DNA of 64,000 bases from Deinococcales bacterium (lineage in GTDB: Bacteria; Deinococcota; Deinococci; Deinococcales; JAAFIG01). Of this stretch, positions 32,673 through 53,621 are shown piece after piece. Location of the stretch: the NCBI GenBank assembly GCA_031414595.1, contig JANNVX010000114.1, positions 1 through 64,000 on the forward strand, written 5' to 3'. Made by a program: the position numbers and the translations under genes. The stretch's first letter is position 1, and every line of letters starts with the position of its first letter. The notes below the pieces were generated by a model. That model had not been told where the DNA came from. It worked only from the letters and a program-made list of their open reading frames with translations, and ran no database searches.

Positions 32673-32762
32673 ACATATCCTTACACACAAACCGTTAAGC
32701 AAGCCGTTGGCATTGCCCAAATCGGGAGAGAATTTTTTGTTGGCACAAAACACTAAATCTGA

Positions 32763-33029: not shown

Positions 33030-33093
33030 ACAAACCTCCTTCTTGCCATTCATAGCGCTCGGCGTTTGAATGACATGACTGTACAAATAGCCT

Positions 33094-33175
33094 TTGAACA
33101 TGCCCTGTCTTTCTCCTGAAGCCGACCTGAAGACATGATTTAGCAAAATTCAGGCAAGCCTCAGTTTTTATTCAA
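33094..33175. promoter_or_regulatory. Divergent promoter with two opposing 11-bp-period TTCAG arrays
   Basis: TTGAA/CTGTC/CTGAA/CTGAA at 33094/33105/33116/33127; TTCAG/CTCAG/TTCAA at 33149/33160/33171. Confidence 0.65.
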
Positions 33176-33273
33176 CTGCTTAAAAGTCGCTCGATTCAAA
33201 ATAAGTTGATTAAGCCCTGGCTCGAAACTTCTCGAGCAGAAATAGATGCTTGGTATTAAAACAGGAGTGATTC

Positions 33274-33783
33274 ATGACAACATTTGCCCCAACCATGCTT
33301 GCCACACCAACTGATTTAAGTGCAAAAGAAGTACAAATAATCAGTCAAAGCCTGAATGCCTTAATTGCCGATGCTTTGGCTTTATATATCAAAACCAAAA
33401 ATTACCATTGGCATTTGTACGGTGCAAGTTTTAAGGAACTCCACGAACTTTTTGACACCCATGCCGAGCAACTTCTCGAGTCAGTAGACCCTCTTGCCGA
33501 ACGGGTGCGTAAACTTGGTGCGACCACACTGCATTCAATTTCGCAAATTGCCAAGTTACAACAAATTAAAGACGACGAAGACGATTTGGTTAAACCACTG
33601 GAAATGGTCAAGCGCTTACTGAGCGACAATCAATATATGGCACGTTGTCAACGCACTGCCATCAGTGTTTGCGAAGAAAACAACGATACCGTCAGCAGTG
33701 ATATTTTACAAAGTTACCTCGACCAAACCGAACGTCGGGTTTGGTTTTTGTTTGAAATTGCCCAAGGCAAAGCCCATCAATAA
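33274..33783 (+). CDS. dps: Dps-family protein
   Basis: LYIKTKNYHWH, LH..FD, D.LAERVRKLG, ERRVWFL. Confidence 0.95.
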   Translation: MTTFAPTMLATPTDLSAKEVQIISQSLNALIADALALYIKTKNYHWHLYGASFKELHELFDTHAEQLLESVDPLAERVRKLGATTLHSISQIAKLQQIKDDEDDLVKPLEMVKRLLSDNQYMARCQRTAISVCEENNDTVSSDILQSYLDQTERRVWFLFEIAQGKAHQ

Positions 33784-33905
33784 AAAATAAATTGGCGATT
33801 TGGAAAATAATCATGTGCGCGGGAGAAATCCGAACAATGATGAATCAGTTCTTGCCACTCGAGATGATGCCGTGCATCTCGGGTGAGACTTTTATCAGGA
33901 GCAAC

Positions 33906-34562
33906 ATGAAAACCGATCAGCAACTTCGAGAAGATATTATTGCCGAACTGGAATATGACCCAAGCATTGAGACCAAAAAAATCTCGGTGGCAACCTTGAA
34001 TGGCATTGTTACTTTATCTGGCAGTGTGCCAAATTTTTATGAAAAATGGAGCATCGAACGAGCCGTAAAGCGAGTGGCTGGCGTGAGCGGGATTGCCGAG
34101 GAATTAACCGTTCAAACTTTTCCCAATACTGAACAAACAGATAGCGAAATTGCCCAAGCCGCTCGATTGGCAATCCAATGGAGTGTGGCTATTGCCGAAG
34201 AACAGATTCAAATTATGGTTGAACAAGGGATCATTACACTCGAGGGTGCAGTGGATTGGCAGTACCAAAAGCAAAATGTCTACGATGCGGTTATTCATTT
34301 ACGCGGGGTTCAAGGTATTCATAATCGGATAACCTTAAAACCATACCTGACAAGTACCGACGTGCGTGAAAAAATCGAAGCTGCCTTTAAGCGCAGTGCC
34401 AACTTTAACGCAAAACAAGTTCATGTAACCGTGGACAACGGCAATGTCACGCTCGAAGGCAACTTGCCCACATGGACTGAACGTGACACCGCTAGCCGAG
34501 TGGCTTGGAACGCGGCGGGGGTGATGACGGTCAACAATCAAATTATGGTGGGTGGCATCTAA
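33906..34562 (+). CDS. Triple BON-domain protein
   Basis: Three GxVTLxG repeats; AGGAG RBS. Confidence 0.92.
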   Translation: MKTDQQLREDIIAELEYDPSIETKKISVATLNGIVTLSGSVPNFYEKWSIERAVKRVAGVSGIAEELTVQTFPNTEQTDSEIAQAARLAIQWSVAIAEEQIQIMVEQGIITLEGAVDWQYQKQNVYDAVIHLRGVQGIHNRITLKPYLTSTDVREKIEAAFKRSANFNAKQVHVTVDNGNVTLEGNLPTWTERDTASRVAWNAAGVMTVNNQIMVGGI

Positions 34563-34606
34563 GAATGCGTTCAAAAAATGCGGCTGGCAAACAAAGGACC
34601 AAAATC

Positions 34607-34933
34607 ATGAAAGAAATTATGCCAAGTAAAGCCTCGGATATGTCAGATCGGATTCATGCCAATATGTACATAGAAAGTTGTATCAAAACCGCCAAAACAT
34701 TTGTTGGAACGGTTGCAGGTATAAAAAACGATCTTTTTATTAAATTGCGTAAACGCGACACACCAGATGGTAAACGCCGTTTTATTCCACTCGAGTGGGT
34801 TCTGTCAGTCGAAGGGGATACGGTGCTGCTGAGTAAAAAAGCTGAAACCGTCAGGCGCAGATGGTTGACCAAAGCAGCCGTTAAAAAGCATCTGCACAAA
34901 ATACATAAATCCCAAAGTCAGTCAAAGCCTTAA
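34607..34933 (+). CDS. DUF2171-like protein
   Basis: VGTV...IKL.K.D..DG..RFIPLEWV..VEG..V.L. Confidence 0.7.
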   Translation: MKEIMPSKASDMSDRIHANMYIESCIKTAKTFVGTVAGIKNDLFIKLRKRDTPDGKRRFIPLEWVLSVEGDTVLLSKKAETVRRRWLTKAAVKKHLHKIHKSQSQSKP

Positions 34934-34961
34934 AAAATCCGCCATCCAAAAAGGAGGAAAC

Positions 34962-35186
34962 ATGTACGACATCCCTAACCATCTCAGCGATGATTTACCA
35001 ACTTTAAGTCCGTTGGTCAGTTTAAGCCCCGAAGTCTTTCTCAAGAGCCAGCCAATGCTGCTTTATGCCGATATTCTCGAGCAACCAGACCACTTACTGA
35101 TTCGCATAAACGTACCAGGTGCAAGACCAGGGAACATTATTGTCACCTTGGAGAACAATGTTTTATCGGTAGCAGCCAAACTCGAG
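34962..35186 (+). pseudogene. Hsp20 5' fragment truncated at CTCGAG
   Basis: Matches paralog at 48060 up to SV..xLE (CTCGAG 35181-35186), then similarity stops. Confidence 0.8.
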
Positions 35187-35381
35187 CCACGGCTGGAGAA
35201 TCTGTTGCGCTTCGTTTTTATTTGTTTCTTCAGGAATTATCAGAAAACGACCATGTTGCACATTGGTTAGAATCACAGTTGCTTCGAGTTGATGTGCCAG
35301 CAAAAAACCCGATTCGATGGCTTTATTTACGGCGGTTTGTTCATTGTGGGCAACGGGTATAAGAATTCGTTTGATGGTCAT
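35181..35381 (-). pseudogene. Universal stress protein 5' fragment truncated at the same CTCGAG
   Basis: IKRILIPV...LA..L.A.V; AAGGAG RBS; after QPWLE it reads into antisense Hsp20. Confidence 0.75.
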
Positions 35382-35435
35382 GATTCACGCTCCTTTTGTT
35401 AAAAGCTACGTTAGAACCAGTGCATTACGGCGATA

Positions 35436-36296
35436 TTACTGCCAGCGCTCGAGAACCTGATTATGTTGACCCACACAAGCTCCATCGCTCGAGAATGGAC
35501 AATTGGCTGTAACTTGCACTGGTTGACGATTACAGATTTTCTCCCCGTTTTTGATCCGCTCAGCAAGCACTAAAGTTTCTGGCATTGGTGAATCCTCGAG
35601 TTCTGCGCGTAAAAAATGAATGAACCGACGGTAATGTTCGATGGCAGCGTACTTATCTTCCACCACTGATAGACAAGTCATCAGTTTTTGATGGTAGTTC
35701 TCGCCAATATACGGGTCTATTCGTAACGCCCTGACTAAAGCACCAACTGCACCTGCACACGCTCCTGTTCCGCAATGCAGCAAAGAAATCTCGAGATTAG
35801 CTCGGACATATACACCGCGCAGTTCTTCGCGTAATTCATTTGCCCAAGCTACTGTCATACTGGGTAAGAAATCTCCTTTGTACAAACCAATAACATTCTG
35901 AAAAGCCCTGAGTTTTAATTCTTCAGTTGCGGCATGATGGGCTGATTCAAGGGTTCTATACATCTGGTTTAAGTCGGTGGATGCCAGCACATAGGCATTT
36001 AAGCGGTAACGATTGTGCTGCTCGAGTAACACATCGTTATTTTCGAGTGCCTGACGAATACGGTGTACCGTGACCCGAAACCGATTATTGCTTTCTTTAG
36101 TCGGTTCGGTTTGCCAGAGTTGCTCAAAAATTTCTTCTTTTTGCTTACCTTCAGGGTGGGCAAGTAAATAAAAAAAGAGTTCCTCGGCAGTTTTACTCTT
36201 AAATTGAGCCTCTGCTCCATTCACCAGCACTTGATGCGTGCCTAGCGTTCTAATCTCGAGACTGATAAAGACCTCCAAGTGTAACCGAGCTTTCAA
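35436..36296 (-). CDS. SARP-like regulator (winged helix plus BTAD), Cys-rich, copy 1
   Basis: IRTLG, ELFFYLLAHP, LW, FRVTVHRIRQAL, LYKGDFL, DPY.E. Confidence 0.85.
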   Translation of the reverse strand: MKARLHLEVFISLEIRTLGTHQVLVNGAEAQFKSKTAEELFFYLLAHPEGKQKEEIFEQLWQTEPTKESNNRFRVTVHRIRQALENNDVLLEQHNRYRLNAYVLASTDLNQMYRTLESAHHAATEELKLRAFQNVIGLYKGDFLPSMTVAWANELREELRGVYVRANLEISLLHCGTGACAGAVGALVRALRIDPYIGENYHQKLMTCLSVVEDKYAAIEHYRRFIHFLRAELEDSPMPETLVLAERIKNGEKICNRQPVQVTANCPFSSDGACVGQHNQVLERWQ

Positions 36297-36333
36297 AGTG
36301 ACCTAAACACAGCCTACAGCTTTGTAGACAGAT

Positions 36334-36424
36334 TATCCTAATTATTAATTACCAAAGCATTACCAGTCTGTGAATCACGAATTAGTTAGGCTGTAACGCT
36401 ATGGTAATGCCAACCTTGCAGACT
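36334..36424. promoter_or_regulatory. Divergent SARP-type promoters
   Basis: Minus: GTAATGC-N4-GTAATTA-N8-GATAAT; plus: GTAACGC(36393)-N4-GTAATGC(36404)-N8-CAGACT. Confidence 0.7.
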
Positions 36425-36442
36425 CTTTCAAGGAGGCATTCC

Positions 36443-36871
36443 ATGTTTCAACATATCCTCGTTCCAATAGACTCGAGCCAATCCAGCAAAGCCGCCGCAC
36501 AACTCGCTGCACGGTTGGCTCGAGCATGGGGAAGTCAGGTTACTTTTGTGCATATTTACGAAGGTGACGCGACCCAAGAAGCTCGGGCTTTACTCGAGGG
36601 TTTTATACAATACACCCGTCTTGTCCCACACCTGATTCTCGAGCCGATGCAGCATAACTTATCAGAAACACTGGTTGGACTTGCCACTCGAGAAGCCACC
36701 GAACTAATCCTGATTGGTGTTCATGCCTATGCCAGACTCGAGCAAGAAGTGCTGGATGGGGTGGCAGGAAGCATTTCGGAACAAGCCAAAATACCCGTCT
36801 TAATCGTGCCAATAGAAAGTAAAAAAGTTGGGTTTGAAGCGCGTTGGGCAAGTGCGGTAATGCAGCCGTAA
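36443..36871 (+). CDS. Universal stress protein
   Basis: MFQHILVPIDSS, LILIG, IPVLIVP; AGGAGG RBS. Confidence 0.88.
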   Translation: MFQHILVPIDSSQSSKAAAQLAARLARAWGSQVTFVHIYEGDATQEARALLEGFIQYTRLVPHLILEPMQHNLSETLVGLATREATELILIGVHAYARLEQEVLDGVAGSISEQAKIPVLIVPIESKKVGFEARWASAVMQP

Positions 36872-37071
36872 TGCCAGTACCGCAAACTATTCTCGAGTGA
36901 GGTGAACCATGCGAACCATTCCAGTAATCGGTAGTTTAACCCTATTTCTAGCCAGTTTATTTGTTGCCATAAATTTACAAAAACCATTGGCAGGACTGAT
37001 TATTTTAATTGTTAGCTTGCTGACTTTGTGGCTCGAAGTTAGCCACCGAGATTCACAAGAAGGAGAACATC

Positions 37072-38022
37072 ATGTTCGCTAAAGTCTGCATTCCTGTTAC
37101 CAACGAATCCCTGTCCATTCATGCGGCTCGAGCCGCGCTGGATTTTGCCCATAAACTCAAGGCTACAGCTGTGTTTGTATCGGTCTTTACAATGCCGATT
37201 ATTTACCGCTCTCAGACCGAAGAAGAAGTTCGGCTTGAATTACAAAAAAATACTGAAGCCTTTCTCGAGACTTGGATAGAATTTGCCGAGCATCGCCAAG
37301 TTCCAGTCAGTACAATCGCCATTGAAGCTCGAGCCTCGGGAATCGCCCAAACCATTGCCGAAATTGCTCTTGAGGAACACTGCGATTTAATCGCTATGGG
37401 AACACACGCCTACGAAGGGATGAACCGACTTTTGCTTGGTAGTATCGCCGAAGCTGTGACACGTTATTCGCACTTACCAGTGATGCTATTCCATATCGGT
37501 CTTGTACCAACCGCCAAACCATTTGATTGCAACCGAATTCTGGTGGCTGTGGATGGTAGTCAAGCTACAGCCGAAGCACTTGATATTACCAGAGCTTTGG
37601 CTAAACAATTGCCTGCCAGTGTTGAAATCTTGCACGTAGTACCTGACGTTCCACCGACTTACGATACCATCATGCCAATGATTGATTACTCAAACCTAGC
37701 TACTGATTACTTAAACGAAGGTAAGCATATTTTGTACAACGCTGAAGCTAAACTAACCGACATTAGCAACAAGGAATTGGTTCTCGAGCCAGCCGGTGGT
37801 CGGCGAATTGCCACTGTGATTCTCGAGATTGCTAAAAATCATCACGCTGATTTGATTGTGCTGGGAACACACGGGTACGGTGGTTTAGACCGAATTTTAC
37901 TCGGCAGCGTGGCGCAAGCCGTGGCGCACCATGCTCATGTGCCTGTGCTGCTGACTCGAGCAGCACAGCGCGAAGATGTGGCTGCCTCTGCTGCTACTGC
38001 CCTCCCAAGTTTAGCTGTTTAA
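37072..38022 (+). CDS. Tandem-domain universal stress protein
   Basis: Two DLI.xGTH...LLGSxA motifs. Confidence 0.92.
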   Translation: MFAKVCIPVTNESLSIHAARAALDFAHKLKATAVFVSVFTMPIIYRSQTEEEVRLELQKNTEAFLETWIEFAEHRQVPVSTIAIEARASGIAQTIAEIALEEHCDLIAMGTHAYEGMNRLLLGSIAEAVTRYSHLPVMLFHIGLVPTAKPFDCNRILVAVDGSQATAEALDITRALAKQLPASVEILHVVPDVPPTYDTIMPMIDYSNLATDYLNEGKHILYNAEAKLTDISNKELVLEPAGGRRIATVILEIAKNHHADLIVLGTHGYGGLDRILLGSVAQAVAHHAHVPVLLTRAAQREDVAASAATALPSLAV

Positions 38023-38059
38023 GAATTTGTGACCTCGAGTTCCGTAAGGGGAGCAACCA

Positions 38060-38548
38060 ATGAAACTGACTTTTACTGCAATTCTTGCTTGGCTATCGGG
38101 CAGTGGTTTCTTGGTAGCACTGGCGGCTGGTTTTGGTATTCTAGGCGGGGCTAGTGGATATACTGCTTATTATGCAGGTGCAACCAGTTACTTGTCGAGC
38201 GACCCGAAAGCCTGTGTCAATTGTCATATCATGCGCGAAGTCTACGATTCATGGGCAAAAGCACCGCATCATAACGTGGCGGTTTGTACCGATTGTCATT
38301 TACCCCATGATTTTATTGGCAAATGGCTTGCCAAAGCCGAAAATGGCTGGAATCACTCAAAGGCATTTACCTTACAAAATTTCCATGAACCAATCCGAAT
38401 TAACAAAAAGAACCTAGAAATTCTCGAGCATAACTGCAAATCTTGTCATGCCGACACAGTGCATCAAATGGTATCCGAAGTCAAACAAGACAACAGCTTA
38501 GGTTGCTTGCATTGTCATGCTGATGTTGGGCATGGACCACAACGATAA
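38060..38548 (+). CDS. nrfH: Cytochrome c nitrite reductase small subunit (tetraheme)
   Basis: N-terminal TM, SYLSSDPKACVNCHIM, four CxxCH. Confidence 0.93.
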   Translation: MKLTFTAILAWLSGSGFLVALAAGFGILGGASGYTAYYAGATSYLSSDPKACVNCHIMREVYDSWAKAPHHNVAVCTDCHLPHDFIGKWLAKAENGWNHSKAFTLQNFHEPIRINKKNLEILEHNCKSCHADTVHQMVSEVKQDNSLGCLHCHADVGHGPQR

Positions 38549-38557
38549 GGAGCAAAA

Positions 38558-39964
38558 ATGGCAAAGATTCGAGGTCCGGTACTGACTGCCAGTGTGTTCT
38601 TAGCTGGCGCACTTGTGACTGTTGGCGTATTAGCACTGTACACCAATATCGTGCAGCGCAAAGCTGAGGAAAAACAACACGTTTTCCAAGTTGTGGAAAT
38701 TACTGAAGACACCATAGACCCTGCCGAATGGGGCAAGAATTACCCCAAGCAATATGATAGTTACAAACGCACTGTGGATACCGAACGCACCCGTTATGGT
38801 GGTTCGGAAAACTTTCAAAAACTTGATTCCGACCCGTTCCTACGCACCATCTTTGCAGGTTACGCCTTTGGCATAGATTTCAGGGAAGAACGCGGTCATG
38901 CCTTTATGCTCGACGACCAACGCGAAACCAAACGAGTCACCGAACGCAAACAACCCGGCGCGTGCCTAAATTGCCATGCCAGTGTACTGACCGCCTTTCG
39001 GGAAACTGGTGTCAAAGCAGGAGTACCAAACGACGAAGACCACCGTTGGGAAGCCGTAGCCAAAGGCTTTACATTGGTCAATAAACTCACGTACTCGGCT
39101 GCTACAGCCCTTGTGACCCACCCTGTTTCATGTGTGGACTGCCATAACCCAACCGACATGGCTGTGCGTGTGACCCGACCAGCCTTTATGAATGGAATCC
39201 AAGCTCTTGCCAAATCAAACGACCCACTGCCTAATTTCCCCAGCATCGAACGCTGGCGCAAAACCAATCAAGCCGTGCCGTATGACCCAAACAAAGAAGC
39301 CTCACGCCAAGAACTGCGAAGCATGGTCTGCACCCAATGCCATGTCGAGTATTACATCACCAAAGAAGACAAACAACTGACCTTCCCGTGGCAGAACGGA
39401 CTTAAGCTCGAGCAAATCGAAAAGTATTACGACGATGTGGGTTGGAAAGACTGGGAACACAAAATTTCTAAAGCCCCAGTGTTAAAAGCCCAACACCCAG
39501 AAATGGAACTCTGGTCACAAGGCATTCATGCTCGAAGCGGCGTAGCCTGCGCCGACTGCCATATGCCCTATCAGCGCCAAGGCGCAATTAAAGTCTCGAG
39601 CCACCATGTTCGTAGTCCGATGTTAAACGTGGCACAAGCCTGCCAGACTTGCCACCGGTACGACGAAACAGAAATCAAAGCTCGAGTCGAAGTTATTCAA
39701 GACCGCACTCAGAAATTATTGACCCAATCAGAATCGGCAGTTGTGGACTTGATCAATGCCATTGCAACCGCCATGAAAGCCAAAAAAACCGACTCACAAC
39801 TTAAAACTGCCCGCGATTTCCAACGCAAAGCCCAATTCCGAGCCGATTTTATCAATGCCGAGAACAGCATGGGATTCCATGCACCCCAAGAAGCTGCACG
39901 CTTACTAGCCGAGAGTATTAATTTTGCGCGGCTTGGACAACTCGAGGTTGCAAAACTAAAGTAA
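38558..39964 (+). CDS. nrfA: Ammonia-forming cytochrome c552 nitrite reductase (pentaheme)
   Basis: AGYAF..DF.EERGH, CTQCHVEYY, KAQHPE, CADCHMPY, ENSMGFHAP; five CxxCH. Confidence 0.93.
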   Translation: MAKIRGPVLTASVFLAGALVTVGVLALYTNIVQRKAEEKQHVFQVVEITEDTIDPAEWGKNYPKQYDSYKRTVDTERTRYGGSENFQKLDSDPFLRTIFAGYAFGIDFREERGHAFMLDDQRETKRVTERKQPGACLNCHASVLTAFRETGVKAGVPNDEDHRWEAVAKGFTLVNKLTYSAATALVTHPVSCVDCHNPTDMAVRVTRPAFMNGIQALAKSNDPLPNFPSIERWRKTNQAVPYDPNKEASRQELRSMVCTQCHVEYYITKEDKQLTFPWQNGLKLEQIEKYYDDVGWKDWEHKISKAPVLKAQHPEMELWSQGIHARSGVACADCHMPYQRQGAIKVSSHHVRSPMLNVAQACQTCHRYDETEIKARVEVIQDRTQKLLTQSESAVVDLINAIATAMKAKKTDSQLKTARDFQRKAQFRADFINAENSMGFHAPQEAARLLAESINFARLGQLEVAKLK

Positions 39965-39976
39965 GGATTTGAATTT

Positions 39977-41831
39977 ATGAAAACTAAGTCGCTCGAGCCA
40001 CCGCTTAAAAAAATGATTGCCCAAGTCCTTAACCTACGCAACCAAGCTATTGCCCTCGAGCAAACGTACCACGTTGAACTTAAAAAAATTCGCCCCCCAT
40101 ATTTGCAAAGCGCTCGAAATTTAATTCATTACTTGGCGGTGCGCCAACAAGACATTCGTGAGATACAACTTGAGTTGCAACGCCTTGGTCTGAGTTCGCT
40201 TGGGCGCATGGAAGCCAATGTTTTAGCAACGCTCAATGCCGTGTTGTTCGCTTTGCAACGCATGGCTGGCTCGAGCGAACAGCTTGAGGTAACGCTTGAC
40301 CCACAGCTTGAGGTAACGCTTGACCCACAGCTTGGGCGCTTACTTCGTAATCACACCACCCGAATTCTTGGTAAAAGTCCACGACATCGGGCAGTGAGAA
40401 TCATGGTCACAATGCCCGAACAAGCTGCCACCGATGCTGGTTTAATTGCCAAATTTCTCGAGTGTGGTATGGATATTATGCGAATAAACTGCGCTCATGA
40501 CGATGCCATAACTTGGGCAAAGATGCTCGAAAATCAGCGCCAAGCAACCATTCAACTTGGACGCAGTTGTCGTGTTGTCTTTGATTTGGCTGGACCAAAA
40601 CTTCGCACTGGATTATTTGAAGCGAGCGCAGAAGTCCTCAAAATAAAACCAGCGCGATCAATTTGGACGAGTGGTGACCAAAGCTCGAGTCTTTTTTACA
40701 ACCACAAAGTTAAGTGCGCCAACCCAAACAGTCTGTATTCCAGTAACCGAGTTACAATTGCAAAGCTGCCAACTAGGTGATCAATTTTTGTTGACCGATG
40801 CTCGAGGTCGCTCGAGAATTTTTGAGATTATTGAGCTTTTAGCCACTGGTTGTATTTGCCAAATCGAACGAACTGCCTACTTGACTTCGGGAATGCCAAT
40901 TTGTGTTTACCACAATAAAAAACAATTGCTTGAGGGTCGAATTGGCAAGTTGCCCTCAAAACCACAAGCCCTCGAGTTGCGAGTTGGAGATACGTTAATC
41001 GTGACCCACGATAGTATTCTTGGCAATCAAGCCCGAATTGAGAACGGGATGCCAATACCAGTCCAGATTGGTTGTACTTTGCCACAAGTCTTTGGTGATG
41101 TCAAACCAAACGAGCGAATTCTATTTGACGACGGCATCATCGCTGGCATCATCAAAAAAGTCAGTCCAGAACAACTCGAGGTAGAAATCACCAATGTGGC
41201 TGGAGGTCTAGCAAAACTTCGTTCCGAAAAAGGCATTAACTTACCTGATACCGATTTTTCGATAGCTGCTTTGACTGAAAAAGACCTCGAAGACCTCAAG
41301 TTTATTGTTAAAAACAGCGATATGGTTTCGTTATCCTTTGTCCGAAACCGAAAAGACATCGAAATGTTGATTGCTCAACTCGAGCAATTAGGCGGGAAGC
41401 ACCTTGGCATTGTCTTAAAGATTGAGAATCGTCTTGCTTTTGAGAATTTACCCGATTTACTACTGACAGCCTTGTCTCACCCACCGGTTGCAATCATGAT
41501 TGCTCGAGGCGACTTAGCTGTGGAAATAGGGTTTGAGCGCCTTGCTGAAGTCCAAGAAGAAATTCTTTGGCTCTGCGAAGCGGCGCATATTCCCGTGATT
41601 TGGGCAACCCAAGTGCTGGATTCGTTAGCAAAAAATGGTTCACCAACTCGAGCCGAAGTGACCGACGCTGCCATGTCAGGACGCGCTGAATGCGTCATGC
41701 TTAACAAAGGCTCATACATTCCCGAAGCCTTGTTGTTTCTTGATAATGTTCTGCGACGCATGAAGCAACATCAGAACAAAAAAACTTCGATGCTCAGACG
41801 CTTAAAAGTAACAACGCCAAAGCTCGAGTAG
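39977..41831 (+). pseudogene. pyk: Long-form pyruvate kinase, frameshifted near 40652-40660
   Basis: IMVTMP, RINCAH, DLAGPKLRT in ORF1; KGINLP, LKIE, MIARGDL, WATQVL, PTRAE, MLNKG in ORF2; restoring one GC unit gives PARDQFGRVVT. Confidence 0.85.
40279..40334 (+). repeat. 24-bp tandem duplication (QLEVTLDP x2)
   Basis: acagcttgaggtaacgcttgaccc x2 plus partial. Confidence 0.9.
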
Positions 41832-41862
41832 CTGATGTACCTCTAAAACAAATACCAAATAA

Positions 41863-42711
41863 CTAAGCCAGACCAACGTAAGCACCATCTCTCGAGAAAC
41901 AGCAATTGGTTGTAAATGACATCGGTTCGCGGTTACAAATTTTCTCACCGTTTTTGATTCGTTCAGCCAGAGCAACCGTTTCGGGCATTGGTGAATCCTC
42001 AAGTTCTACTTGTAAAAAATGAATAAAGCGTCGGTAATGCTCTATTGCAATGTATTTATCTTCGACCACGGATAAACAGGTCATTAGTTTTTGATGATGA
42101 TTCTCTCCCATATACGGGTCTATCCGCAGGGCTGCATCTAAGGTACTGACTGCTTTGGCACACGTACCAGTTCCACAATAAAGCAGCGAAATCTCGAGGT
42201 TAGCACGAACAAAAACCCCGCGCAGTTGTTCACGCAGTTCATTTGCCCAAGTTGTGGTTATGCTCGGTAAAAAGTCGCCTTGATAGAGTGCGATAACACG
42301 CTTAAAGGCTTGCAATCGCAGTTCTTTGTTTGGGGCATGGCGGGCTTCTTCTAGGGTCTGATAAATTTGGTTTAAGTCGGTAGCCGCCAGCACAGCCGCG
42401 TTTAAGCGGTAACGATTATCTTGCTCGAGCAGTGCCTGATTATGCCCGAGTGCCTGACGAATACGGTGTACGGTGACTCTAAAACGATTATTGCTTTGGT
42501 TGGTTGGTTCGGTTTGCCAGAGTTGCTCGAGAATTTCTTCTTTTTGCTTACCGTTTGGATGAGCCAGTAAGTAAAAAAAGAGTTCTTCGGCGGTTTTACT
42601 CTTAAATTGGGCGGCTTGGTTATTGACCAAAACATGGTGTCTGCCAAGGGTCGCAATCTCAAGAATCGGGCAAACCTCAAGAAGTTCTTGCCCAATCCGA
42701 CCTTGCTCCAT
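41863..42711 (-). CDS. SARP-like BTAD regulator, copy 2
   Basis: Close paralog of 35436-36296; AAGGAG RBS before ATG 42711. Confidence 0.85.
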   Translation of the reverse strand: MEQGRIGQELLEVCPILEIATLGRHHVLVNNQAAQFKSKTAEELFFYLLAHPNGKQKEEILEQLWQTEPTNQSNNRFRVTVHRIRQALGHNQALLEQDNRYRLNAAVLAATDLNQIYQTLEEARHAPNKELRLQAFKRVIALYQGDFLPSITTTWANELREQLRGVFVRANLEISLLYCGTGTCAKAVSTLDAALRIDPYMGENHHQKLMTCLSVVEDKYIAIEHYRRFIHFLQVELEDSPMPETVALAERIKNGEKICNREPMSFTTNCCFSRDGAYVGLA

Positions 42712-42735
42712 TTTTTTCTCCTTGACACTGCGTAA

Positions 42736-42781
42736 AAAACCCAAATTCTGGAGTATTGCAACTCGAGCGAATTTGGGTTTT
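42736..42781 (-). terminator. Terminator-like hairpin upstream of BTAD copy 2
   Basis: AAAACCCAAATTC...GAATTTGGGTTTT ending in a T-run on the minus strand. Confidence 0.55.
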
Positions 42782-42811
42782 GCAGGAGTAAAATCAGAGT
42801 AAGGCGCAGAA

Positions 42812-42838
42812 CTGAAGTCTGGCTGAAGAGTAACTGAA
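42812..42838 (-). promoter_or_regulatory. Three TTCAG repeats at 11-bp period
   Basis: CTGAA at 42812, 42823, 42834. Confidence 0.7.
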
Positions 42839-42867
42839 CATAAACTACCTTGGCTCGAGCCTTAGGT

Positions 42868-43389
42868 TTAACTTTGTGCTACGGCTCTTAGAATATCGCT
42901 GGTGGTCACAATACCTTTAAGTTCATCGCCGTACAGCACCACTAAACACGAAATGTTCTCCTCGAGCATGACTCTGGCTGCATATGCCACTGGCGCGTCT
43001 TGGAGGATTGTAATCACTGGGTTGTGCATCAGTTCTTTAGCCGTGGTTTTCTCGAGCAGCAGAGGGATTTCCCATTGGGCGAGGCTAGTTGCATCCGACG
43101 GTAAGGCACGGCGAATGTCTCGGTCAGTAATAATACCAACGATTCGGTCATGATTTTTAACCAATAAATGCCGAAAACCATGTTCTTGTAAAATCCGTCG
43201 AATCTCGGGCAGGGTGGTGCTGACTTCGACGCTGATAACCTTGGCAGTCATGATTTCATGGACGCACCAATAACCGCTTTCACGGGCAAGCAATGGGGTT
43301 TGACTACTGATGTGGTCTTGATGCCCGAAACGCAATATAAATTCATCTTTGGTTTGCTCGAGCTTGGTGATACCTGTGGTTGTGGTCAT
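42868..43389 (-). CDS. CBS-pair protein (AcuB-like)
   Basis: IM...V, FRHL.V, VGIITDRD, GIVTTSDIL. Confidence 0.9.
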   Translation of the reverse strand: MTTTTGITKLEQTKDEFILRFGHQDHISSQTPLLARESGYWCVHEIMTAKVISVEVSTTLPEIRRILQEHGFRHLLVKNHDRIVGIITDRDIRRALPSDATSLAQWEIPLLLEKTTAKELMHNPVITILQDAPVAYAARVMLEENISCLVVLYGDELKGIVTTSDILRAVAQS

Positions 43390-43405
43390 ATATTTTCTCC
43401 TTTTG

Positions 43406-45007
43406 TTACAGCGTTAGCAGAATTTGCGCCAGCAGTATCTTGGCAATCATTGCCATTGGATAAACAGTCGCGTAACCTTGATTGGGTAGGTCGTTGCCGC
43501 TTCGTTCGGTGGCAAAGGCAAGCACGGCTGGTTGGGTTTGCAAGCCTGCCAGCATTCCAATCGCAATCGGGAACGGGACGCGCAGGATTTTATGGGCAAT
43601 AAATAACAAAGTAATGGCTACAAAACAAGTCAGGAACGTACCCAGTAAAAATAAGGTGATTCCGAGGCTCGAGAAGACTGTTTGACCAAAAGCAAAACCC
43701 GAACGTGTGCCGACCCCCGCTAAAAACAGCACAATCCCAATTTGGCGTAAGGTCAGGTTAGCACTGTACGGAATCTGCCATAAGACCCCTAAAAAACGTT
43801 CTCCCCAACCGAGCAACAAACCAACAATCAGTGTGCCACCCGCAATACCAAGTTCAAAATGACCACCGTTTGGCAATGGGATTTTTAGACTACCGAGCAG
43901 CAAGCCAAGGGCGATTCCTAAGCCAAACGACAGCACATCAATTTCAGAAAGATGCTGGTACGAATCGCCTAGAAAACTCGAAATCGCTTTCATTTCTTGG
44001 GGCGCACAAACCACCCGCACTCGGTCGCCTAACTCAAGAACGGTGTCTTTATTGGGTAAAAATTCTATATCTCCGCGCCGAACTCGAGTTATCAATGCCC
44101 CAAAACGCTGTGGCAATTGCAACTCTAGTAGGCTTCGCCCAGCCACAGCTTGGCTAGAAACAAAAACCCGACGGTAATCAAAATGACTGCGGTCTAGTTC
44201 GAGTGCGGCTGGAATAACCTCACCAAGCCGATTGATACTTTTTTGAACAGCTTCTTCTGTACCAATCAGGGTAATAATATCACCAAGCTCAAAAGTTGTT
44301 TTTGGCGAGACCAGACTTTGAATTTGACCACGCTGATGTCGCGCAAACAGCACATTCCAGCCCTCTGACTGTGCCACCACGGTTAAACCAATTAAATCTG
44401 GGTTGGTCAGGCGTACCGAGGCACTTTTTAAGCCGTTGGCTGTAAACCCAGCCACTCGAGCCGACTCGAGTTTCATATCTACCCGCCAGAATCGCTCGAG
44501 TAAGCCAATACAAAGCAGCATCGCAATCACACCCATTGGGTACGCCACGCTGTAACCAAGCACCGGTAAGGATTCGGCACTCGTACCCTTGATCGCCTCG
44601 AGTACCCCTGCTAAGGCGGGCGTATTGGTGAAAGCACCAGCAAAGACCCCAGCCACTAAACTCGGCTCGAGATTGAGAATGCGGCGCAGCAAACTCGAGA
44701 CCAGCACGGCTAGTATTAACGCCCCCAGCACCAGGGCATTATCGCGCAGACCACGCTTGCCTAGACTGCGAAAAAAACCTGTGCCACTGGATAAACCAAT
44801 CGTATAGACAAATAACACCAAGCCAAGGCGCTGAATAATCTCGGGCAGTTTAAGTTCGGCATCCAAACTACCAAACGCTAGCCCTACAAATAAAACGGCG
44901 GCAATACCCAAGGAAAAACCCGCAATTTTGACCCGCCCGAGCAGAAAGCCTAAGCTCGAGACCAGAAAAAGCAGCAGCAGTGGGTTTTCTTTGAGTAAGG
45001 TCAGCAT
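43406..45007 (-). CDS. AspT/YidE/YbjL-family antiporter
   Basis: GLVLFVYTIG, AGAFTNTPAL, YSVAYP, TrkA-C domains, GYATVYP. Confidence 0.9.
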   Translation of the reverse strand: MLTLLKENPLLLLFLVSSLGFLLGRVKIAGFSLGIAAVLFVGLAFGSLDAELKLPEIIQRLGLVLFVYTIGLSSGTGFFRSLGKRGLRDNALVLGALILAVLVSSLLRRILNLEPSLVAGVFAGAFTNTPALAGVLEAIKGTSAESLPVLGYSVAYPMGVIAMLLCIGLLERFWRVDMKLESARVAGFTANGLKSASVRLTNPDLIGLTVVAQSEGWNVLFARHQRGQIQSLVSPKTTFELGDIITLIGTEEAVQKSINRLGEVIPAALELDRSHFDYRRVFVSSQAVAGRSLLELQLPQRFGALITRVRRGDIEFLPNKDTVLELGDRVRVVCAPQEMKAISSFLGDSYQHLSEIDVLSFGLGIALGLLLGSLKIPLPNGGHFELGIAGGTLIVGLLLGWGERFLGVLWQIPYSANLTLRQIGIVLFLAGVGTRSGFAFGQTVFSSLGITLFLLGTFLTCFVAITLLFIAHKILRVPFPIAIGMLAGLQTQPAVLAFATERSGNDLPNQGYATVYPMAMIAKILLAQILLTL

Positions 45008-45022
45008 AAATACCTCGAGATT

Positions 45023-46852
45023 TTATTCGTGGGCGAGTTCCCCAAGTTCTGGTGAACGCCATAGCGCACTGAGCATTAACTCGCGGATAAAAATAAATTC
45101 TTTGGGCAATCTATCGTAGAGTTTGATAAATAATTCGTCGTGCGAGGCAATTTCTTGTTGCCATAATTCGCGGTCAATACTGATTAACTGCTCGAATTGG
45201 GTTTTGGTCATGTCCAGACCGCGCCAATCCATGTCCTCATAGCGGGGAACCCAACCAAGGACACTTTCGACGCTAGTGGCATGACCTCTGGCACGTTCGA
45301 CAATCCATTTGAGGACGCGCATATTTTCGCTAAAACCATGCCATAAGTAGTTGCCGGCTGCGTCTTTGCGAAACCAATTGACATTAAAAATTCTTGGTGG
45401 GTTGGGTAATTCCCTGCCAAGTTGCACCCAATGATTAAAGTAATCACCCATGTGATAACCACAAAAAGGTAGCATCGCAAATGGATCGCGGCGGACTGCC
45501 CCTGTTGCACCAACTGCCGCCGCCGTAGTTTCGCTACCCATTGTAGCAGCCGCATAAACACCATAAGTCCAATTAAAACTCTGGTAAACCAGTGGTACAA
45601 CCTTCGAGCGTCTGCCACCAAAGATAAAGGCAGAAATTGGTACGCCATCTGGGTCGTTATAAGCTGGGTCAATGACTGGGCATTGGGCTATCGGCGCGGT
45701 AAATCTCGAGTTAGGATGGGCGGCTTTGCGTCCACAATCAGGGGTCCAGTCTTGTCCTGTCCAGTCTATTAAATGCGCGGGTGGTGTGGCGCTCATACCT
45801 TCCCACCAAACATCGAGGTCGTCGGTCAGGGCAACATTGGTAAAAATCGTATTCTCGAGAATGCTGTTCATGGCGTTGGGATTAGATTCAAAATTTGTGC
45901 CTGGAGCAACCCCAAAAAAACCTGCTTCTGGGTTGATGGCTCGGAGTTGCCCGTGGCTGTCTGCTTTTATCCAAGCAATGTCATCTCCAACTGTACTGAT
46001 TTCCCAACCATCATCGGTAAAAGGTTTTGGTGGTATCAGCATCGCAAAATTGGTTTTACCACAAGCACTTGGAAAGGCTGCCGCCACATAGGTTTTTTCG
46101 CCGTTCGGGTCTTTAACACCAAGAATCAGCATATGTTCGGCTAACCAATTTTGTTCTTTTGCCAGCACACTAGCGATTCTTAGGGCAAAACACTTTTTAC
46201 CAAGCAAGGCGTTGCCACCGTAACCAGAACCATAACTCCAGATACTGCGTTCCTCGGGGAAATGAACGATGTACTTGTCAAAGTTACATGCCCAGCTACT
46301 GTCTTTTTGTCCAAACTCGAGCGGTGCGCCAAGGCTGTGTAAGCAATGCACAAAATCGTTGTTCCCCAATGCTTCGAGTACCGCTTGTCCCATGCGCGTC
46401 ATAATTCGCATATTGACCGCCACATATGGCGAATCGGATAATTCTACGCCAATGTGCGAAATTGAACTGCCAATCGGACCCATGCTGAACGGAATCACAT
46501 ACATCACCCGTCCGCGCATTGAACCCGCAAATAAGCCTTGCAACTTGGTTTTCATGGCTTTGGGTTCAAACCAATTGTTCATCGGACCCGCGTCGGATTT
46601 ACTTCTCGAGCAAATATAAGTGCGGTCTTCGACCCGTGCCACATCGGTCACTGCGGAACGTGCCAAAAAACTATTCAGGCGCTTATCGGGGTTAAGCCGT
46701 ATAAACGTACCACTTTGCACCATTTGTTCACAGAGCTTGTCGTATTCTTCTTGTGAGCCATCGCACCAATGAATGCTGTCTGGCTGGCATAATGCCGCGA
46801 CTTCTGCGACCCAACGTTGTAACTCGAGGTTGCTTGTGAATTCTTTTGTCAT
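45023..46852 (-). CDS. pckG: Phosphoenolpyruvate carboxykinase (GTP)
   Basis: [52 protein letters not shown]. Confidence 0.97.
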
Positions 46853-46870
46853 ATAAATCCTCCTGTTTGA

Positions 46871-46955
46871 AGTTTGCAACTCGAGAATTACCAGTGCATT
46901 ACCACACGGGTGGGAACACAACCGTAATGCCTTGGTAATGCCAGCCTTCGAGACT
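46871..46955. promoter_or_regulatory. Divergent SARP-type promoters
   Basis: Minus: GTAATGC-N4-GTAATTC-N8-CAAACT; plus: GTAATGC(46924)-N4-GTAATGC(46935)-N8-GAGACT. Confidence 0.72.
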
Positions 46956-46972
46956 CTTGTTCGGAGGTACTT

Positions 46973-47878
46973 ATGAAAATCAGTATTATTGGAGCAGGAA
47001 TGGTTGGTGGCGCAATTGCCAATGCTTTAGCCCAAAAGAACTTGGCTTTAGAAGTCGTTTTAATAGATAAAGAACACAGTCTTGCCGATGCACAAGCCCT
47101 TGACATCAATAGTGGATTCATGGGACAAACCATTATTCGCGCAGGTGAACTCAGTGATGTTCATGATTCAAAAATCATTATTCTCGCCGCAGGTCAACGC
47201 ACCACCTTTAATTACAGCAGTAAGCAATTACTCGAAGTCAACACCACCATCTTACAAACCACCCTCAGCACCATCCGAGCCATAGAGTTACAATCAGACG
47301 TGATCATCATCAATGCGATTCAACCAATTGACATGATGACCAATCACATTGCCAAATTATTTGGCGAAAAATATACAAATCGAATTATTGGCACAGGCAC
47401 AATCCTCGAGACCAACTTATTCCGACAAGCCATCGCTAAACAAGTTGGTGTTCATTTAAGTCAAGTTCATGGGTATGTACTTGGACAACAAGGCGGCAGT
47501 GCTTTAATGGCATGGAGTACGGTTCGCGTAGCTGGCATTCCGTTTGAAACCTACCTCGAGCAGCACGGACAGCACCTGACCAATCAAACCAAGAATAAAA
47601 TCGCAGAAGCCGTACAGTACGCGGTCAATAAAGCCTTGCAGCAAAAAGGATCGTTTTTGTTTGGCTTAGGTCATGCCATTACCCATTTAATCAATGCAAT
47701 TATCGAAGACCGTCATGAAATCATGACCGTCAGTGCATGGGATGAAGCTCAGGGCGTTGCGATTGCCTTACCACGAATTATCGGTAATAGTGGTGTTCTC
47801 GAGACGGTCGAACCGATGTTATCGCCCGATGAAGCTGCAAAACTCGAAGTGATTATCGGCTATTTTCGCAACGTTTAG
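46973..47878 (+). CDS. L-lactate/malate dehydrogenase-fold protein with degenerate active site
   Basis: [15 protein letters not shown] and GYVLG present; GQQG replaces GEHG and LETNL replaces LDxxR. Confidence 0.85.
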
Positions 47879-48059
47879 TTGTGTATTTAGGATAGAAATC
47901 TATTGTTTTCAGCAAGTCTTCAGCTAAATAACCTTACGCATTCAGGTGATGATGCTTACTTATGGAGAGTCAAATTTTCCACTGGCAGATTGTGGCATAG
48001 GTCGTGGTTTAAGTAAATTATTTTACTTGAAGAAGATGGGTTAGTTAAGGAGAAAAACA

Positions 48060-48542
48060 ATGGTTCATTATGATATTCCCAAGCAGCTTCTTCCTGAAAA
48101 ACAACTTACCCATGAAATTTGTCCACCCCAAAAGCTAGGCATCAGTCCAGAGGTGATTCTCAACGGCTTACCGAGGTTGTTACATACCGATGTTCTCGAG
48201 CAGCCAGACCATTTGTTAATCCGTATGAACTTGCCAGGTGTAAAACCAGAAAATGTGGCGGTCACACTAATGAACAATGTCTTATCGGTAGTGGCGCGGC
48301 TCGAGACTGAATCGCTAGAAGCACAGTATTTGTGGCGTGAACGCCCAAGTGGTGAAGTTTTTCGTTCGATTGCTTTAATTGGCGACCTCGAGATGTGTGG
48401 TGGTCGGGCTTTTCTCGAGCATGGCGTGTTGACTGTGCGGGTTAATAAAGTCAATAGCCATGTGCTTGCAGTACAACTTGGGGCGCTCGAGCATGATTAC
48501 TTAGAGCTTGTGCAAACAGACTTTTGTCAAGCTTGGTACTGA
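48060..48542 (+). CDS. Hsp20 small heat-shock protein
   Basis: LPGV.PE.V.V, RER..G...RSI.L, GVLTV.V.K. Confidence 0.85.
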   Translation: MVHYDIPKQLLPEKQLTHEICPPQKLGISPEVILNGLPRLLHTDVLEQPDHLLIRMNLPGVKPENVAVTLMNNVLSVVARLETESLEAQYLWRERPSGEVFRSIALIGDLEMCGGRAFLEHGVLTVRVNKVNSHVLAVQLGALEHDYLELVQTDFCQAWY

Positions 48543-48554
48543 ACAAGGAGTTTT

Positions 48555-49064
48555 ATGACGATTCCAGCCACAAAAATGTTGGCGACTCCAACAGACCTAA
48601 GCCCAGACCAAGTGACAGCCATTAGCCAAACCATTAATATTTTAATTGCTGATACTTTGGCGCTCTATATTAAAACCAAGAATTTTCATTGGCATTTGTA
48701 TGGCGCAGACTTCAAGGAACTGCACGAGCTTTTTGACTCGCACGCCGACCAATTACTGGCTTATGTAGATGTGCTTGCCGAGCGTGTCCGCAAACTTGGT
48801 GAACCAACCCTACATTCAATTTCGCAAATTGCCAAGTTACAACAAATTAAAGATGACAATGAACCCTCGGTCAAGCCACTTGAGATGGTTAAGCGGTTAT
48901 TGAGCGATAACCAACAGATGGTTCGTCAGCAACGAACAGCCATTGCACTTTGCGAAGCCAACCACGATTCGCCTACCAGCAATGTTTTACAAACGTTCCT
49001 TGATGAAACCGAGCGTCGTGTTTGGTTTTTATTTGAGATTACCCAAGGAGAAAAATCCAAATAG
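48555..49064 (+). CDS. dps: Dps-family protein (paralog)
   Basis: KTKNFHWH, LAERVRKLG, ETERRVWFL. Confidence 0.95.
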   Translation: MTIPATKMLATPTDLSPDQVTAISQTINILIADTLALYIKTKNFHWHLYGADFKELHELFDSHADQLLAYVDVLAERVRKLGEPTLHSISQIAKLQQIKDDNEPSVKPLEMVKRLLSDNQQMVRQQRTAIALCEANHDSPTSNVLQTFLDETERRVWFLFEITQGEKSK

Positions 49065-49090
49065 TTTTTTCTAGGTCAAAAGGAGTATTT

Positions 49091-49185
49091 ATGGACAGCA
49101 CTAAAAAAAACTTGAGGCGGCAACTCGAGCCGCTTGGAATACCCAGGGTGTGACTTCGGTCAGAAACGACATTTTGATTGCTTGA
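49091..49185 (+). pseudogene. BON-protein remnant
   Basis: RBS plus ATG, A8 run, then out of frame EAATRAAWNTQGVTSVRNDILIA*, like the neighbouring BON C-termini. Confidence 0.55.
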
Positions 49186-49272
49186 AACTCGGAAGTGAAA
49201 ACTGAACCAGTCGTTTCTCGCCACTCGAGATGATGCCGTGCATATTAAGTGAGACGCTAAACAGGAGTAATC

Positions 49273-49935
49273 ATGAAAACCGATAAAAAATTACAAGAAG
49301 ATGTTCTTGCCGAACTGGATTTTGAACCAAGTGTCAATGCGGCTCACGTTGGAGTAACCGCCAATAATGGCGTGGTTACACTGACAGGGACAGTGGATTC
49401 ATTTGCTGGCAAAATGGCTATCTCGAGGGTGATTGAACGGGTCAATGGCGTTTTTGGCATCGCCGATGAAATGAAGGTTAATCTGCCCTCGAGCCATCAG
49501 CGCAACGATACCGACATTGCCCGAGCCGCCGTTGAAGCCCTAGAGTGGAGTTGGCTTATACCGCGTGAGAGCATCAAAGTGAAGGTGCAAAGTGGTTGGG
49601 TGACACTTGAAGGCGAAGTTCATTGGGAGTTTCAGCGCGGTCAGGCACATCAAACGATGAATAGTTTGGTTGGGGTACGCGGGGTCAGCAATAACCTTAA
49701 AATCAAAGCCAGCCAAATTAACATTCAACCGTACAGCATCGAAACCAGCATCAAAAATGCCTTCGAGCGCAACGCCGAACTAAACAGCAAAGCCATTTCC
49801 ATCGAGGTTATGGCTGGACGTGTCACCTTGCGTGGCAATTTACCATCGTTAAAAGAACGTGATTCAGCAGTGTTGGCAGCTTGGAGCGCTCCAGGTGTGA
49901 TTGGTGTGGAAAACCGCATTGTGATTGGTACTTAG
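49273..49935 (+). CDS. Triple BON-domain protein
   Basis: Three BON repeats, AAWSAPGV. Confidence 0.92.
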   Translation: MKTDKKLQEDVLAELDFEPSVNAAHVGVTANNGVVTLTGTVDSFAGKMAISRVIERVNGVFGIADEMKVNLPSSHQRNDTDIARAAVEALEWSWLIPRESIKVKVQSGWVTLEGEVHWEFQRGQAHQTMNSLVGVRGVSNNLKIKASQINIQPYSIETSIKNAFERNAELNSKAISIEVMAGRVTLRGNLPSLKERDSAVLAAWSAPGVIGVENRIVIGT

Positions 49936-50002
49936 AACCCATATGGCAATTGGTACTTAGAAAACTTGGCTCGAGACTGCTCGAGATGATTAAAGGAGAA
50001 CG

Positions 50003-50662
50003 ATGAATAAGCGAACCGATATTCAAGTCCATAAAGACGTACTTGATGAACTGGGCTTTGACCCAAGTATTGACATATCACAAATTTCAGTGGCTGTTTC
50101 GGATGGCATTGTCACACTTTCGGGCAGTGTGACAAATTTCTATGAAAAATGGAATGCCGAACGTGCTGTCAAGCGCGTAGTAGGAGTCGAGGGTTTTGCC
50201 GAAGAACTAAGCGTTCAGCCTTTTCCAAAAACTGAGCAATCCGACACCGACATTGCTGCTGCGGCTCGTCATGCAATTAAGTGGGGGGTGTCAGTCCCCG
50301 ACGAAGACATTCAAATCAAGGTTGAAAACGGCATTATTACGCTTGAAGGGCAAGTGGACTGGCACTACCAAATGAAGAATGTCTATAGCGCTGTGTTGTA
50401 CTTACGTGGTGTTAAAGGCGTGAATAACTTAATCAGCCTTAAACCAACTTTAAGCAGTGCTGATGTCCGTGAAAAAATTGAAGCTGCCTTTAAGCGCAGT
50501 GCCTACCTTGATTCCGAACATATTTATGTGACTGCCCAAGGTGGCAATATTACTTTGCGCGGTCATTTGCCCACTTGGACGGAACGCGAATCTGCCAGCC
50601 GTGTGGCGTGGAATGCAGGTGGCGTAATTGCTGTCAACAACGAAATTACAGTCGGTTACTAA
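50003..50662 (+). CDS. Triple BON-domain protein (close paralog of 33906)
   Basis: NFYEKW, DVREKIEAAFKRSA, LPTWTER shared. Confidence 0.92.
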   Translation: MNKRTDIQVHKDVLDELGFDPSIDISQISVAVSDGIVTLSGSVTNFYEKWNAERAVKRVVGVEGFAEELSVQPFPKTEQSDTDIAAAARHAIKWGVSVPDEDIQIKVENGIITLEGQVDWHYQMKNVYSAVLYLRGVKGVNNLISLKPTLSSADVREKIEAAFKRSAYLDSEHIYVTAQGGNITLRGHLPTWTERESASRVAWNAGGVIAVNNEITVGY

Positions 50663-50701
50663 AAAATTAAACACGAGGCTCGCGTCTTAGGGAGGAATAT
50701 T

Positions 50702-50866
50702 ATGAAACATCTTATTCAAGGCTACTTTACAACCCACGAACTGGCAGAATCGGCTGTACGGGCTGGAAATTATTTGGTATTGGCACACGGCGATGAACAC
50801 CAAATTATGCATTCTCGAGAAGTGTTGGTGGCTCAGGACATCGAAGTCTCGAGTCGGTCGGCTTAA
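50702..50866 (+). pseudogene. 54-aa ORF resembling an internally deleted general stress protein
   Basis: GGAGG RBS; GYFTTHELAESAV joined directly to RAGNYLVLAHG; not in ORF track. Confidence 0.45.
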
Positions 50867-50871
50867 CAATC

Positions 50872-53598: not shown

Positions 53599-53621
53599 AT
53601 GCAGTGTACAGGAGAAAACCA

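Follow-up and report, generated by a model that had tools for sequence, protein, structure and literature searches.

At positions 35181-35186 of the window (the whole 64,000-nt stretch of Deinococcales DNA analysed here), the palindrome CTCGAG is the meeting point of two truncated genes that face each other, namely the 5' part of an Hsp20 gene on the plus strand (Hsp20-a) and the 5' part of a tandem universal-stress-protein (USP) gene on the minus strand (tUSP2). The hexamer is read in frame as Leu-Glu on both strands. The question raised by this locus is whether the palindrome itself drove the rearrangement, as a first-pass annotation had proposed, or whether it was simply contained in the short identity at which two pieces of DNA were joined. 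As judged from the alignments described below, the junction is likely to be a one-off scar of illegitimate recombination using short homology, in which CTCGAG would have been only the commonest short identity. The junction is a concrete, sequence-resolved case of CTCGAG at a rearrangement junction in an uncultured member of the Deinococcales, and it corresponds to the one HIP1/smtB case from which the idea of 'genome plasticity' for HIP1 arose in cyanobacteria.

The Hsp20 and USP fragments and the patch at their junction

The plus-strand ORF (34962..35270) encodes 102 aa. Its first 75 codons (34962..35186) cover the N-terminal arm and the beginning of the alpha-crystallin domain, as indicated by BLASTP, Pfam and the DNA of G005, a genome of the same genus. 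The following 27 codons and the stop (35187..35270) form a tail outside the family, consisting of antisense USP sequence, and similarity to both the paralog and the G005 Hsp20 stops there. The intact paralog Hsp20-b (48060..48542, plus strand, 160 aa) was matched by BLASTP over residues 2-75 of the ORF only (41/79 identical, E 4e-24), and the match ended at Leu-Glu. Hsp20-b has a CTCGAG at the same codon pair (48300-48305), which agrees with the earlier claim that similarity to the paralog runs up to a hexamer present in both copies. The Pfam HSP20 profile matched the fragment at positions 1-39 of 102 (E 0.0072, 16.9 bits, below the cut-off of 20.8), while it matched Hsp20-b at positions 2-90 of 102. 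By these comparisons the Hsp20-a piece is a gene fragment of the Hsp20/alpha-crystallin family (PF00011) that is missing the greater part of the alpha-crystallin domain and is no functional member.

When relatives with an intact locus were aligned, G005 was found to carry an intact Hsp20-a of 158 codons, which is 95% identical in DNA up to the junction and contains the same CTCGAG, seen here directly as DNA. The G005 contig matches window positions 32256-35197 at 94.8%, with the gene order Dps, BON gene, DUF2171 and Hsp20 common to both. We rejected the idea that the G005 gene is itself a hybrid of an Hsp20-a 5' half and an Hsp20-b 3' half, since its 3' half shares only 73.5% identity with Hsp20-b. 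Compared with the window, the N-terminal arm of Hsp20-a is 6 nt (two codons) longer in G005 and in a strain of run X5 (window 35018 versus L002 ~2672). The dN/dS of the Hsp20 fragment against G005 was 0.21, compared with 0.03-0.09 for three neighbouring genes, and this value is based on 22 changes. It gives a weak hint of relaxed constraint on the Hsp20 piece; as a mark of pseudogene decay it was set aside, the 22 changes being too few to lean on.

On the minus strand, the ORF 35381..35163 (72 aa) consists of 65 codons, then Leu66-Glu67 from the hexamer, then FGCYR and a stop at 35163. The USP part (35181..35381) comprises 67 codons of a tandem-USP gene of about 320 codons. The 72-aa product gave no Pfam match at E<=0.01, PF00582 included. 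Its closest USP relatives over residues 1-69 were P0001 (316 aa, 80% identical) and P0002 (323 aa, 74% identical), both of them tandem-USP proteins carrying PF00582, and each match covered 96% of the fragment. The 72-aa product, from its match to these relatives, is a 5' fragment of a PF00582-type gene and corresponds to about a fifth of a tandem-USP protein. The earlier statement that the USP gene is intact for 65 codons up to the hexamer was thus correct, and so was the broader one that both genes are truncated at one common CTCGAG, for which the ORFs, BLASTP, Pfam and the alignments of relatives all speak.

Around the junction the USP reading is Q-P-W-L-E-F-G in the window, R-P-W-L-E-L-G in P0001, E-P-W-L-L-F-G in P0002 and E-P-W-V-Q-L-G in the ortholog of G006. 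The latter is a 325-aa protein, 46% identical, that occupies the same place beside a BTAD regulator; in its DNA the two codons are GTG CAA (Val-Gln), and it has a CTCGAG of its own two codons upstream. G006 was the only one of 18 other genomes with a tUSP2 ortholog in the family search, and the search with the 72-aa fragment placed an ortholog in 1 of 5 genomes. A scan of the genome collection for tUSP2 returned the G006 record and 3 distant matches. The contigs of P0001 and P0002 were absent from the metagenome scan, which returned 3 loci, all distant (24-33% identity). Because P0001 has Leu-Glu at this place, and because 60% of the Leu-Glu pairs in long ORFs of the genome (11,450/18,968) are spelled CTCGAG, the USP parent very probably had CTCGAG at the junction as well.

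The similarity to each parent does not stop at the hexamer. On the Hsp20 side, identity to the parent extends through CCA (35187-35189), with 8/11 nt matching G005 to 35197 (G005 has GCAGCCAAACTCGAGCCAAGTCTAGAA where the window has GCAGCCAAACTCGAGCCACGGCTGGAG). On the USP side, homology runs past the hexamer through Phe-Gly (35175-35180), and the minus-strand reading W-L-E-F-G can be compared with PWLELG, PWLLFG and PWVQLG in the USP relatives. The overlap zone 35175..35189 (GCCAAACTCGAGCCA) fits both parents, so that the crossover would lie inside it, and all 15 nt are identical in the Hsp20-a DNA of G005. The zone shared by the parents would be 9 nt (35181-35189, CTCGAGCCA) and possibly the full 15 nt. 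The 9-nt minimum is drawn from DNA on the Hsp20 side and from protein-level inference on the USP side, and it holds if the Leu-Glu of the USP parent was spelled CTCGAG; if that parent differed, the shared patch could be as short as CCA. A breakpoint on the Hsp20 side near 35197 is a formal possibility in view of the 8/11 matches to G005 beyond the hexamer. The crossover, which would have occurred somewhere within the patch of 9-15 nt, cannot be placed exactly, and hence the breakpoint cannot be pinned to the hexamer as had first been suggested. No terminator or promoter signals beyond chance were seen at the junction.

The diverged block and a probable short-homology origin

A diverged stretch of about 15.6 kb (35187..50766) has the junction as its left edge and is 78-87% identical to G005 between flanks of 95-96%. 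Its right edge is only bracketed, as a G005 contig starts there. Identity to G005 was 95% in the window up to 35197, 78-81% at 35454-39964, 81% at 43406-47866, 87% at 49257-49861 and 96% from 50767, the start of a G005 contig. Inside the block the identities are star-like, with 72-81% among G005, G003, G006 and the genome of the window (G000), and neither GC content nor CTCGAG density differs there from the flanks. Other places, too, have patches of low identity to G005 (73%), and the step at the junction is therefore not unique.

Gene order was then compared with that of the relatives. Next to tUSP2 the window has a BTAD/Trans_reg_C regulator (35436..36296, minus strand), identified by Pfam, which is a conserved neighbour found in the same surroundings in G006; there, tUSP2 lies beside the same regulator and is followed by unrelated genes. 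In G005, Hsp20-a is directly followed by a BON gene that is 87% identical to window 49257-49861, and tUSP2 was not found in this genome by the five-genome and family searches. The BTAD-USP-NrfHA block of G005 adjoins a region whose G000 counterpart lies on another contig, and NrfA is single-copy in G000. The first-pass annotation had described two neighbouring convergent genes that lost only the DNA between them. This description was not sustained, since Hsp20-a and tUSP2 are neighbours in none of the relatives examined; the ancestral gene order is not reconstructible from G005, G006 or G001.

The block is flanked by two paralogous stress clusters, one with Dps, BON, DUF2171 and Hsp20 (33274-35186) and the other with Hsp20, Dps, BON and BON (48060-50662). 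Between them lie USP genes, two BTAD regulators, NrfH/NrfA and a lactate-dehydrogenase-like gene. Both truncated genes have intact paralogs nearby. The BON genes have in common a conserved leader of about 60 nt with a CTCGAG (33850-33905 and 49215-49270). Beside the BTAD gene of G005 there is a repeat of about 84 nt (L012 6096-6179) with 88% copies in G000 (C107:6001-6084 and C14:52248-52320), which may be a miniature mobile element.

The proposed course of events is as follows. The patch of 9 nt, probably the whole of the 15 nt, would have been present on the plus strand in Hsp20-a, and the same patch, read on the other strand as Trp-Leu-Glu-Phe-Gly, would have been present in the tandem-USP gene. 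A crossover inside the patch would have left one copy. This would have cost Hsp20-a its codons 76-158 and tUSP2 about 250 codons, together with anything between them, leaving both genes as dead fragments. The earlier proposal of recombination between two CTCGAG sites can be retained in part: CTCGAG is present in the Hsp20 parent and very probably was in the USP parent, while the patch exceeds the hexamer.

In a variant of this scheme, a segment of about 15 kb from a related strain would have replaced a G005-like stretch, with an anchor of homology on the right and an illegitimate join on the left. We lean slightly towards such a segment replacement over a simple deletion in place, because identity to G005 falls at the junction from 95% to 78-81% and returns to 96% from 50767, and because NrfA is single-copy in G000 and its block stands beside a different region in G005. 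The alternative is that an ancestor whose locus was larger underwent a plain deletion. How the USP parent read at the DNA level, and where the event came from, are deductions.

Deletions between short direct repeats were reportedly attributed by Bzymek and Lovett in 2001 to replication slippage or to RecA-independent illegitimate recombination. The present junction resembles them in the short patch that both parents probably had, in the single copy kept and in a truncation that ignores the reading frame. It differs from direct-repeat deletions in general in that its patch has the most frequent hexamer of the genome at its core, and in that a palindrome gives direct-repeat identity to genes on opposite strands. 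Homology-facilitated illegitimate recombination in natural transformation, which de Vries and Wackernagel are said to have described in 2002, offers another likeness, with one end joined at a few nt of identity and the other anchored by homology. A process of this kind would explain why the step in divergence lies exactly at the junction. Unlike that case, the window has no known donor, and the right anchor is not seen as a crossover.

The closest precedent for the motif itself comes from Synechococcus PCC 6301, in which a 352-bp excision in smtB was flanked by HIP1 (Gupta et al. 1993, as related in PMC13756078) and, in the account given there, was read as illegitimate recombination between two HIP1 copies. 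As far as that account goes, the parallel drawn in the first-pass annotation is an apt one: in both cases a hyper-abundant palindrome stands at both ends of a deletion and one copy is left, at the USP end of ours very probably (PMC13756078). According to the same account, smtB involved an 8-mer, a cyanobacterium, a small deletion, cadmium selection and known sequences at both ends. By contrast, the present case involves a 6-mer, an uncultured Deinococcales member, one parent inferred from proteins and identity that continues beyond the palindrome, and there is no sign of selection. In cyanobacteria HIP1 has also been linked to recombination in transformation, within what the preprint bioRxiv 10.1101/2024.09.10.611283 reports, and this likewise ties an abundant palindrome to recombination outcomes. 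The effect described there is dependent on homology and methylation and acts in homologous arms, whereas the present case is a single illegitimate junction, and the samples examined showed no enrichment. The scar is best filed as an ordinary short-homology rearrangement, with its patch built around the hyper-abundant word of the lineage.

CTCGAG abundance and the rival explanations

How often such a junction should contain CTCGAG by chance depends on the abundance of the hexamer. The window has 324 copies versus 7.1 expected, and the genome has 23,235 copies in 4.49 Mb, or one per 193 bp, which makes it the commonest hexamer. Within this uncultured family of the Deinococcales, loci of four genera are equally rich in the hexamer. 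Within long ORFs, 57% of the copies are read as the codons CTC GAG, a frame that is identical on the two strands. As the palindrome usually reads in frame as Leu-Glu, genes of either strand have it in direct orientation, and the present case shows how an in-frame palindrome gives genes on opposite strands direct-repeat identity.

Among direct repeats within 5 kb, the hexamer was contained in 6.6% of 6-mers, 19% of 9-mers and 20% of 15-mers, and it lies in 15-20% of all direct repeats of 9-15 nt. Hence, of every five or six generic short-homology events, about one would be expected to fall on a patch centred on CTCGAG, and a single CTCGAG junction is unremarkable given a hexamer every 193 bp and its share of the 9-15-nt repeats. 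The 15-mer GCCAAACTCGAGCCA occurs 7 times in the genome versus about 5 times expected, as reckoned from CTCGAG flank counts, and a second copy of it in a USP gene is plausible. Our search for literature on CTCGAG at rearrangement junctions, as a highly iterated palindrome or in Deinococcales found none among the papers listed. A word as dense as this will turn up at junctions with no dedicated mechanism, and this sets a null for claims of palindrome-driven rearrangement, HIP1 included.

A mechanism specific to CTCGAG, either cutting by a nuclease of XhoI specificity followed by religation of the TCGA ends or a recombinase acting on the hexamer, is favoured by the presence of exactly one CTCGAG in the junction, by the copy that each parent had or probably had, and by the huge over-representation of the motif. 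The HIP1-flanked smtB excision provides, in the version told in PMC13756078, a precedent for an abundant palindrome at deletion ends. However, neither cutting nor a hexamer recombinase needs the identity that continues beyond the hexamer on at least one side. Among 577,105 pairs of CTCGAG within 5 kb, at least 3 nt were shared on a given side in 2.6%, and at least 9 extra nt in total in 0.18%; the cut-and-rejoin route offered at first is poorly compatible with these figures. The Pfam XhoI profile (PF04555) had no match in G000, which is a weak negative, since the control genomes were silent too.

Indels between related genomes were also used to look for breakpoints at CTCGAG. We compared 231 kb of G000 (the window and eight 20-kb stretches of other contigs) with its two closest genomes, G001 and G005, at >=85% identity. 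The 172 raw events of >=6 nt were reduced to 115 by de-duplication and to 48 clean indels after 67 events with a junction fit <0.8 had been dropped; two of these indels may represent a single event detected in both relatives. This screen superseded a smaller first one (19 gaps and 16 larger events). In none of the 48 clean indels did a CTCGAG mark the junction as well as the two ends of the longer allele. Only 2 of the 48 touched a CTCGAG, versus 2.7 +/- 1.6 expected from 2000 random placements, and 4 (counted by eye) lay within 3 nt of one, versus 4.2 +/- 2.0 expected. Fixed indels have passed selection, and a raised mutational rate at intragenic CTCGAG pairs would be hard to see among them.

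Similarly, the ends of intragenomic repeats (>=120 nt, >=88% identity) touched CTCGAG in 22 of 844 cases versus 30.9 +/- 5.2 expected. The three other junctions in the same island lie at GCNGAAGC, at GCCGCT and, in one case, at no short repeat. With no excess of breakpoints at CTCGAG in the samples examined, the view of the palindrome as a general rearrangement substrate lost its ground; it is supported in a trivial sense only, as the commonest short identity. Taken with the identity beyond the hexamer, these counts make a CTCGAG-specific mechanism unlikely.

Several further observations were made in the course of these comparisons. With 6-nt slack, 48 repeat ends touched CTCGAG versus 82.8 expected, and repeated, probably mobile, DNA may be poorer in the hexamer. 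The nearest candidate for a CTCGAG-to-CTCGAG event, and the only one among the 48, was a 15-nt indel against G005 at window 30070 (30055-30090), between two copies of ACTCGAGA, for which the gap placement is ambiguous (2 versus 3 mismatches). The tandem-USP gene that encodes 316 aa in the window encodes 227 aa in G005 (37455-37740 versus L012 ~3977-3984), with an in-frame internal deletion of 98 codons at the 8-nt repeat GCNGAAGC; a CTCGAG stands 3 nt from this junction in G005, and none is found at either end in G000. One BON gene of G005 has a 360-nt internal deletion relative to window 50077-50436 (L012 1553-1556), and its junction has no CTCGAG. In G001, the end of a BON gene is joined to the spacer before the gene at 53604 (G001:C17, L093 389-393), and 18.8 kb of the window (34566 to 53366) has no counterpart at that join. 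A CTCGAG is 1 nt away in G001, and G000 reads TTCAAA and CTCAAA at the matching spots. This BON gene is possibly a paralog, so that perhaps more than one event was involved.

It is also improbable that the two genes were joined bluntly beside a chance CTCGAG, the flanking identity and the Leu-Glu-Phe-Gly reading being coincidental. At one hexamer per 193 bp, some 3-6% of breakpoints placed at random would touch one, and the junction was originally picked because of its hexamer. Nevertheless, the W-L-E-F-G reading agrees with the two closest USP relatives at 5/6 and 5/6 residues, over the hexamer and past it. A blunt join is unlikely because this USP match spans the hexamer, which would be unexpected if the DNA left of 35187 were Hsp20 alone.

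A more far-reaching idea, which we regard as quite improbable, is that in this lineage incoming DNA is preferentially joined by its illegitimate end at the CTCGAG palindrome. If it were true, islands like the 15-kb Nrf/USP/Hsp20 block would be inserted and trimmed at CTCGAG-centred patches, and the hyper-iterated palindrome would play a part in gene flow, like the one suggested for HIP1. Such a part could go unseen in fixed indels, given that most CTCGAG-to-CTCGAG deletions would be intragenic and purged.

Missing 3' parts and reads across the join

Under the short-homology reading preferred here, the 3' parts of both genes should be gone, as the first-pass annotation had also stated, and neither was picked up, by tblastn or by HMM-type searching, in any of the 120 contigs of the 4.49-Mb assembly (94% complete). 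In the tblastn search there was no second piece for the 3' half of Hsp20-a. A search of the assembly with P0001 matched only 35175-35381 (80%) for tUSP2, and the rest were paralogs at <=37%.

These absences also bear on an inversion between inverted copies of the patch, in which both genes would once have lain on the same strand and the reciprocal junction would be hidden in the unassembled 6%. Two facing 5' halves are exactly what one end of an inversion looks like, and the palindromic core of the patch can pair in either orientation over 6 nt. Even so, an inversion is very unlikely, as neither an Hsp20-a 3' half nor a tUSP2 3' part was found in any contig, and the flanks of the patch (GCCAAA and CCA) are not palindromic, so that the full patch pairs in direct orientation only.

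The join itself was checked in pieces assembled from the read runs. Among the pieces listed, run X3 gave none over 33562-35575, run X6 gave two short pieces and run X5 gave none over 35184-35356. In X5, one contig of a G005-like strain ends at 35183 and another begins at 35357. We draw no conclusion from any of these gaps. A 6766-nt contig that another assembler made from the 31-mers of run X1 covers 33543-37000 at even depth and shows 0 differences, thereby crossing position 35181; the run is possibly the assembly's own source sample, and the contig thus serves as a check on the assembler and not as an independent sample. A chimera made in assembly or binning from contigs of two related strains is scarcely credible on this evidence: strain chimeras do arise in metagenome assemblies, and the left and right flanks do differ sharply in identity to G005, but none of the X1 loose ends listed falls at 35175-35197, and a second assembler reproduced the same join over 3.4 kb. 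As the parents have at most 15 exact nt in common, too few for a de Bruijn mis-join, 31-mers that cross the join must exist in the reads.
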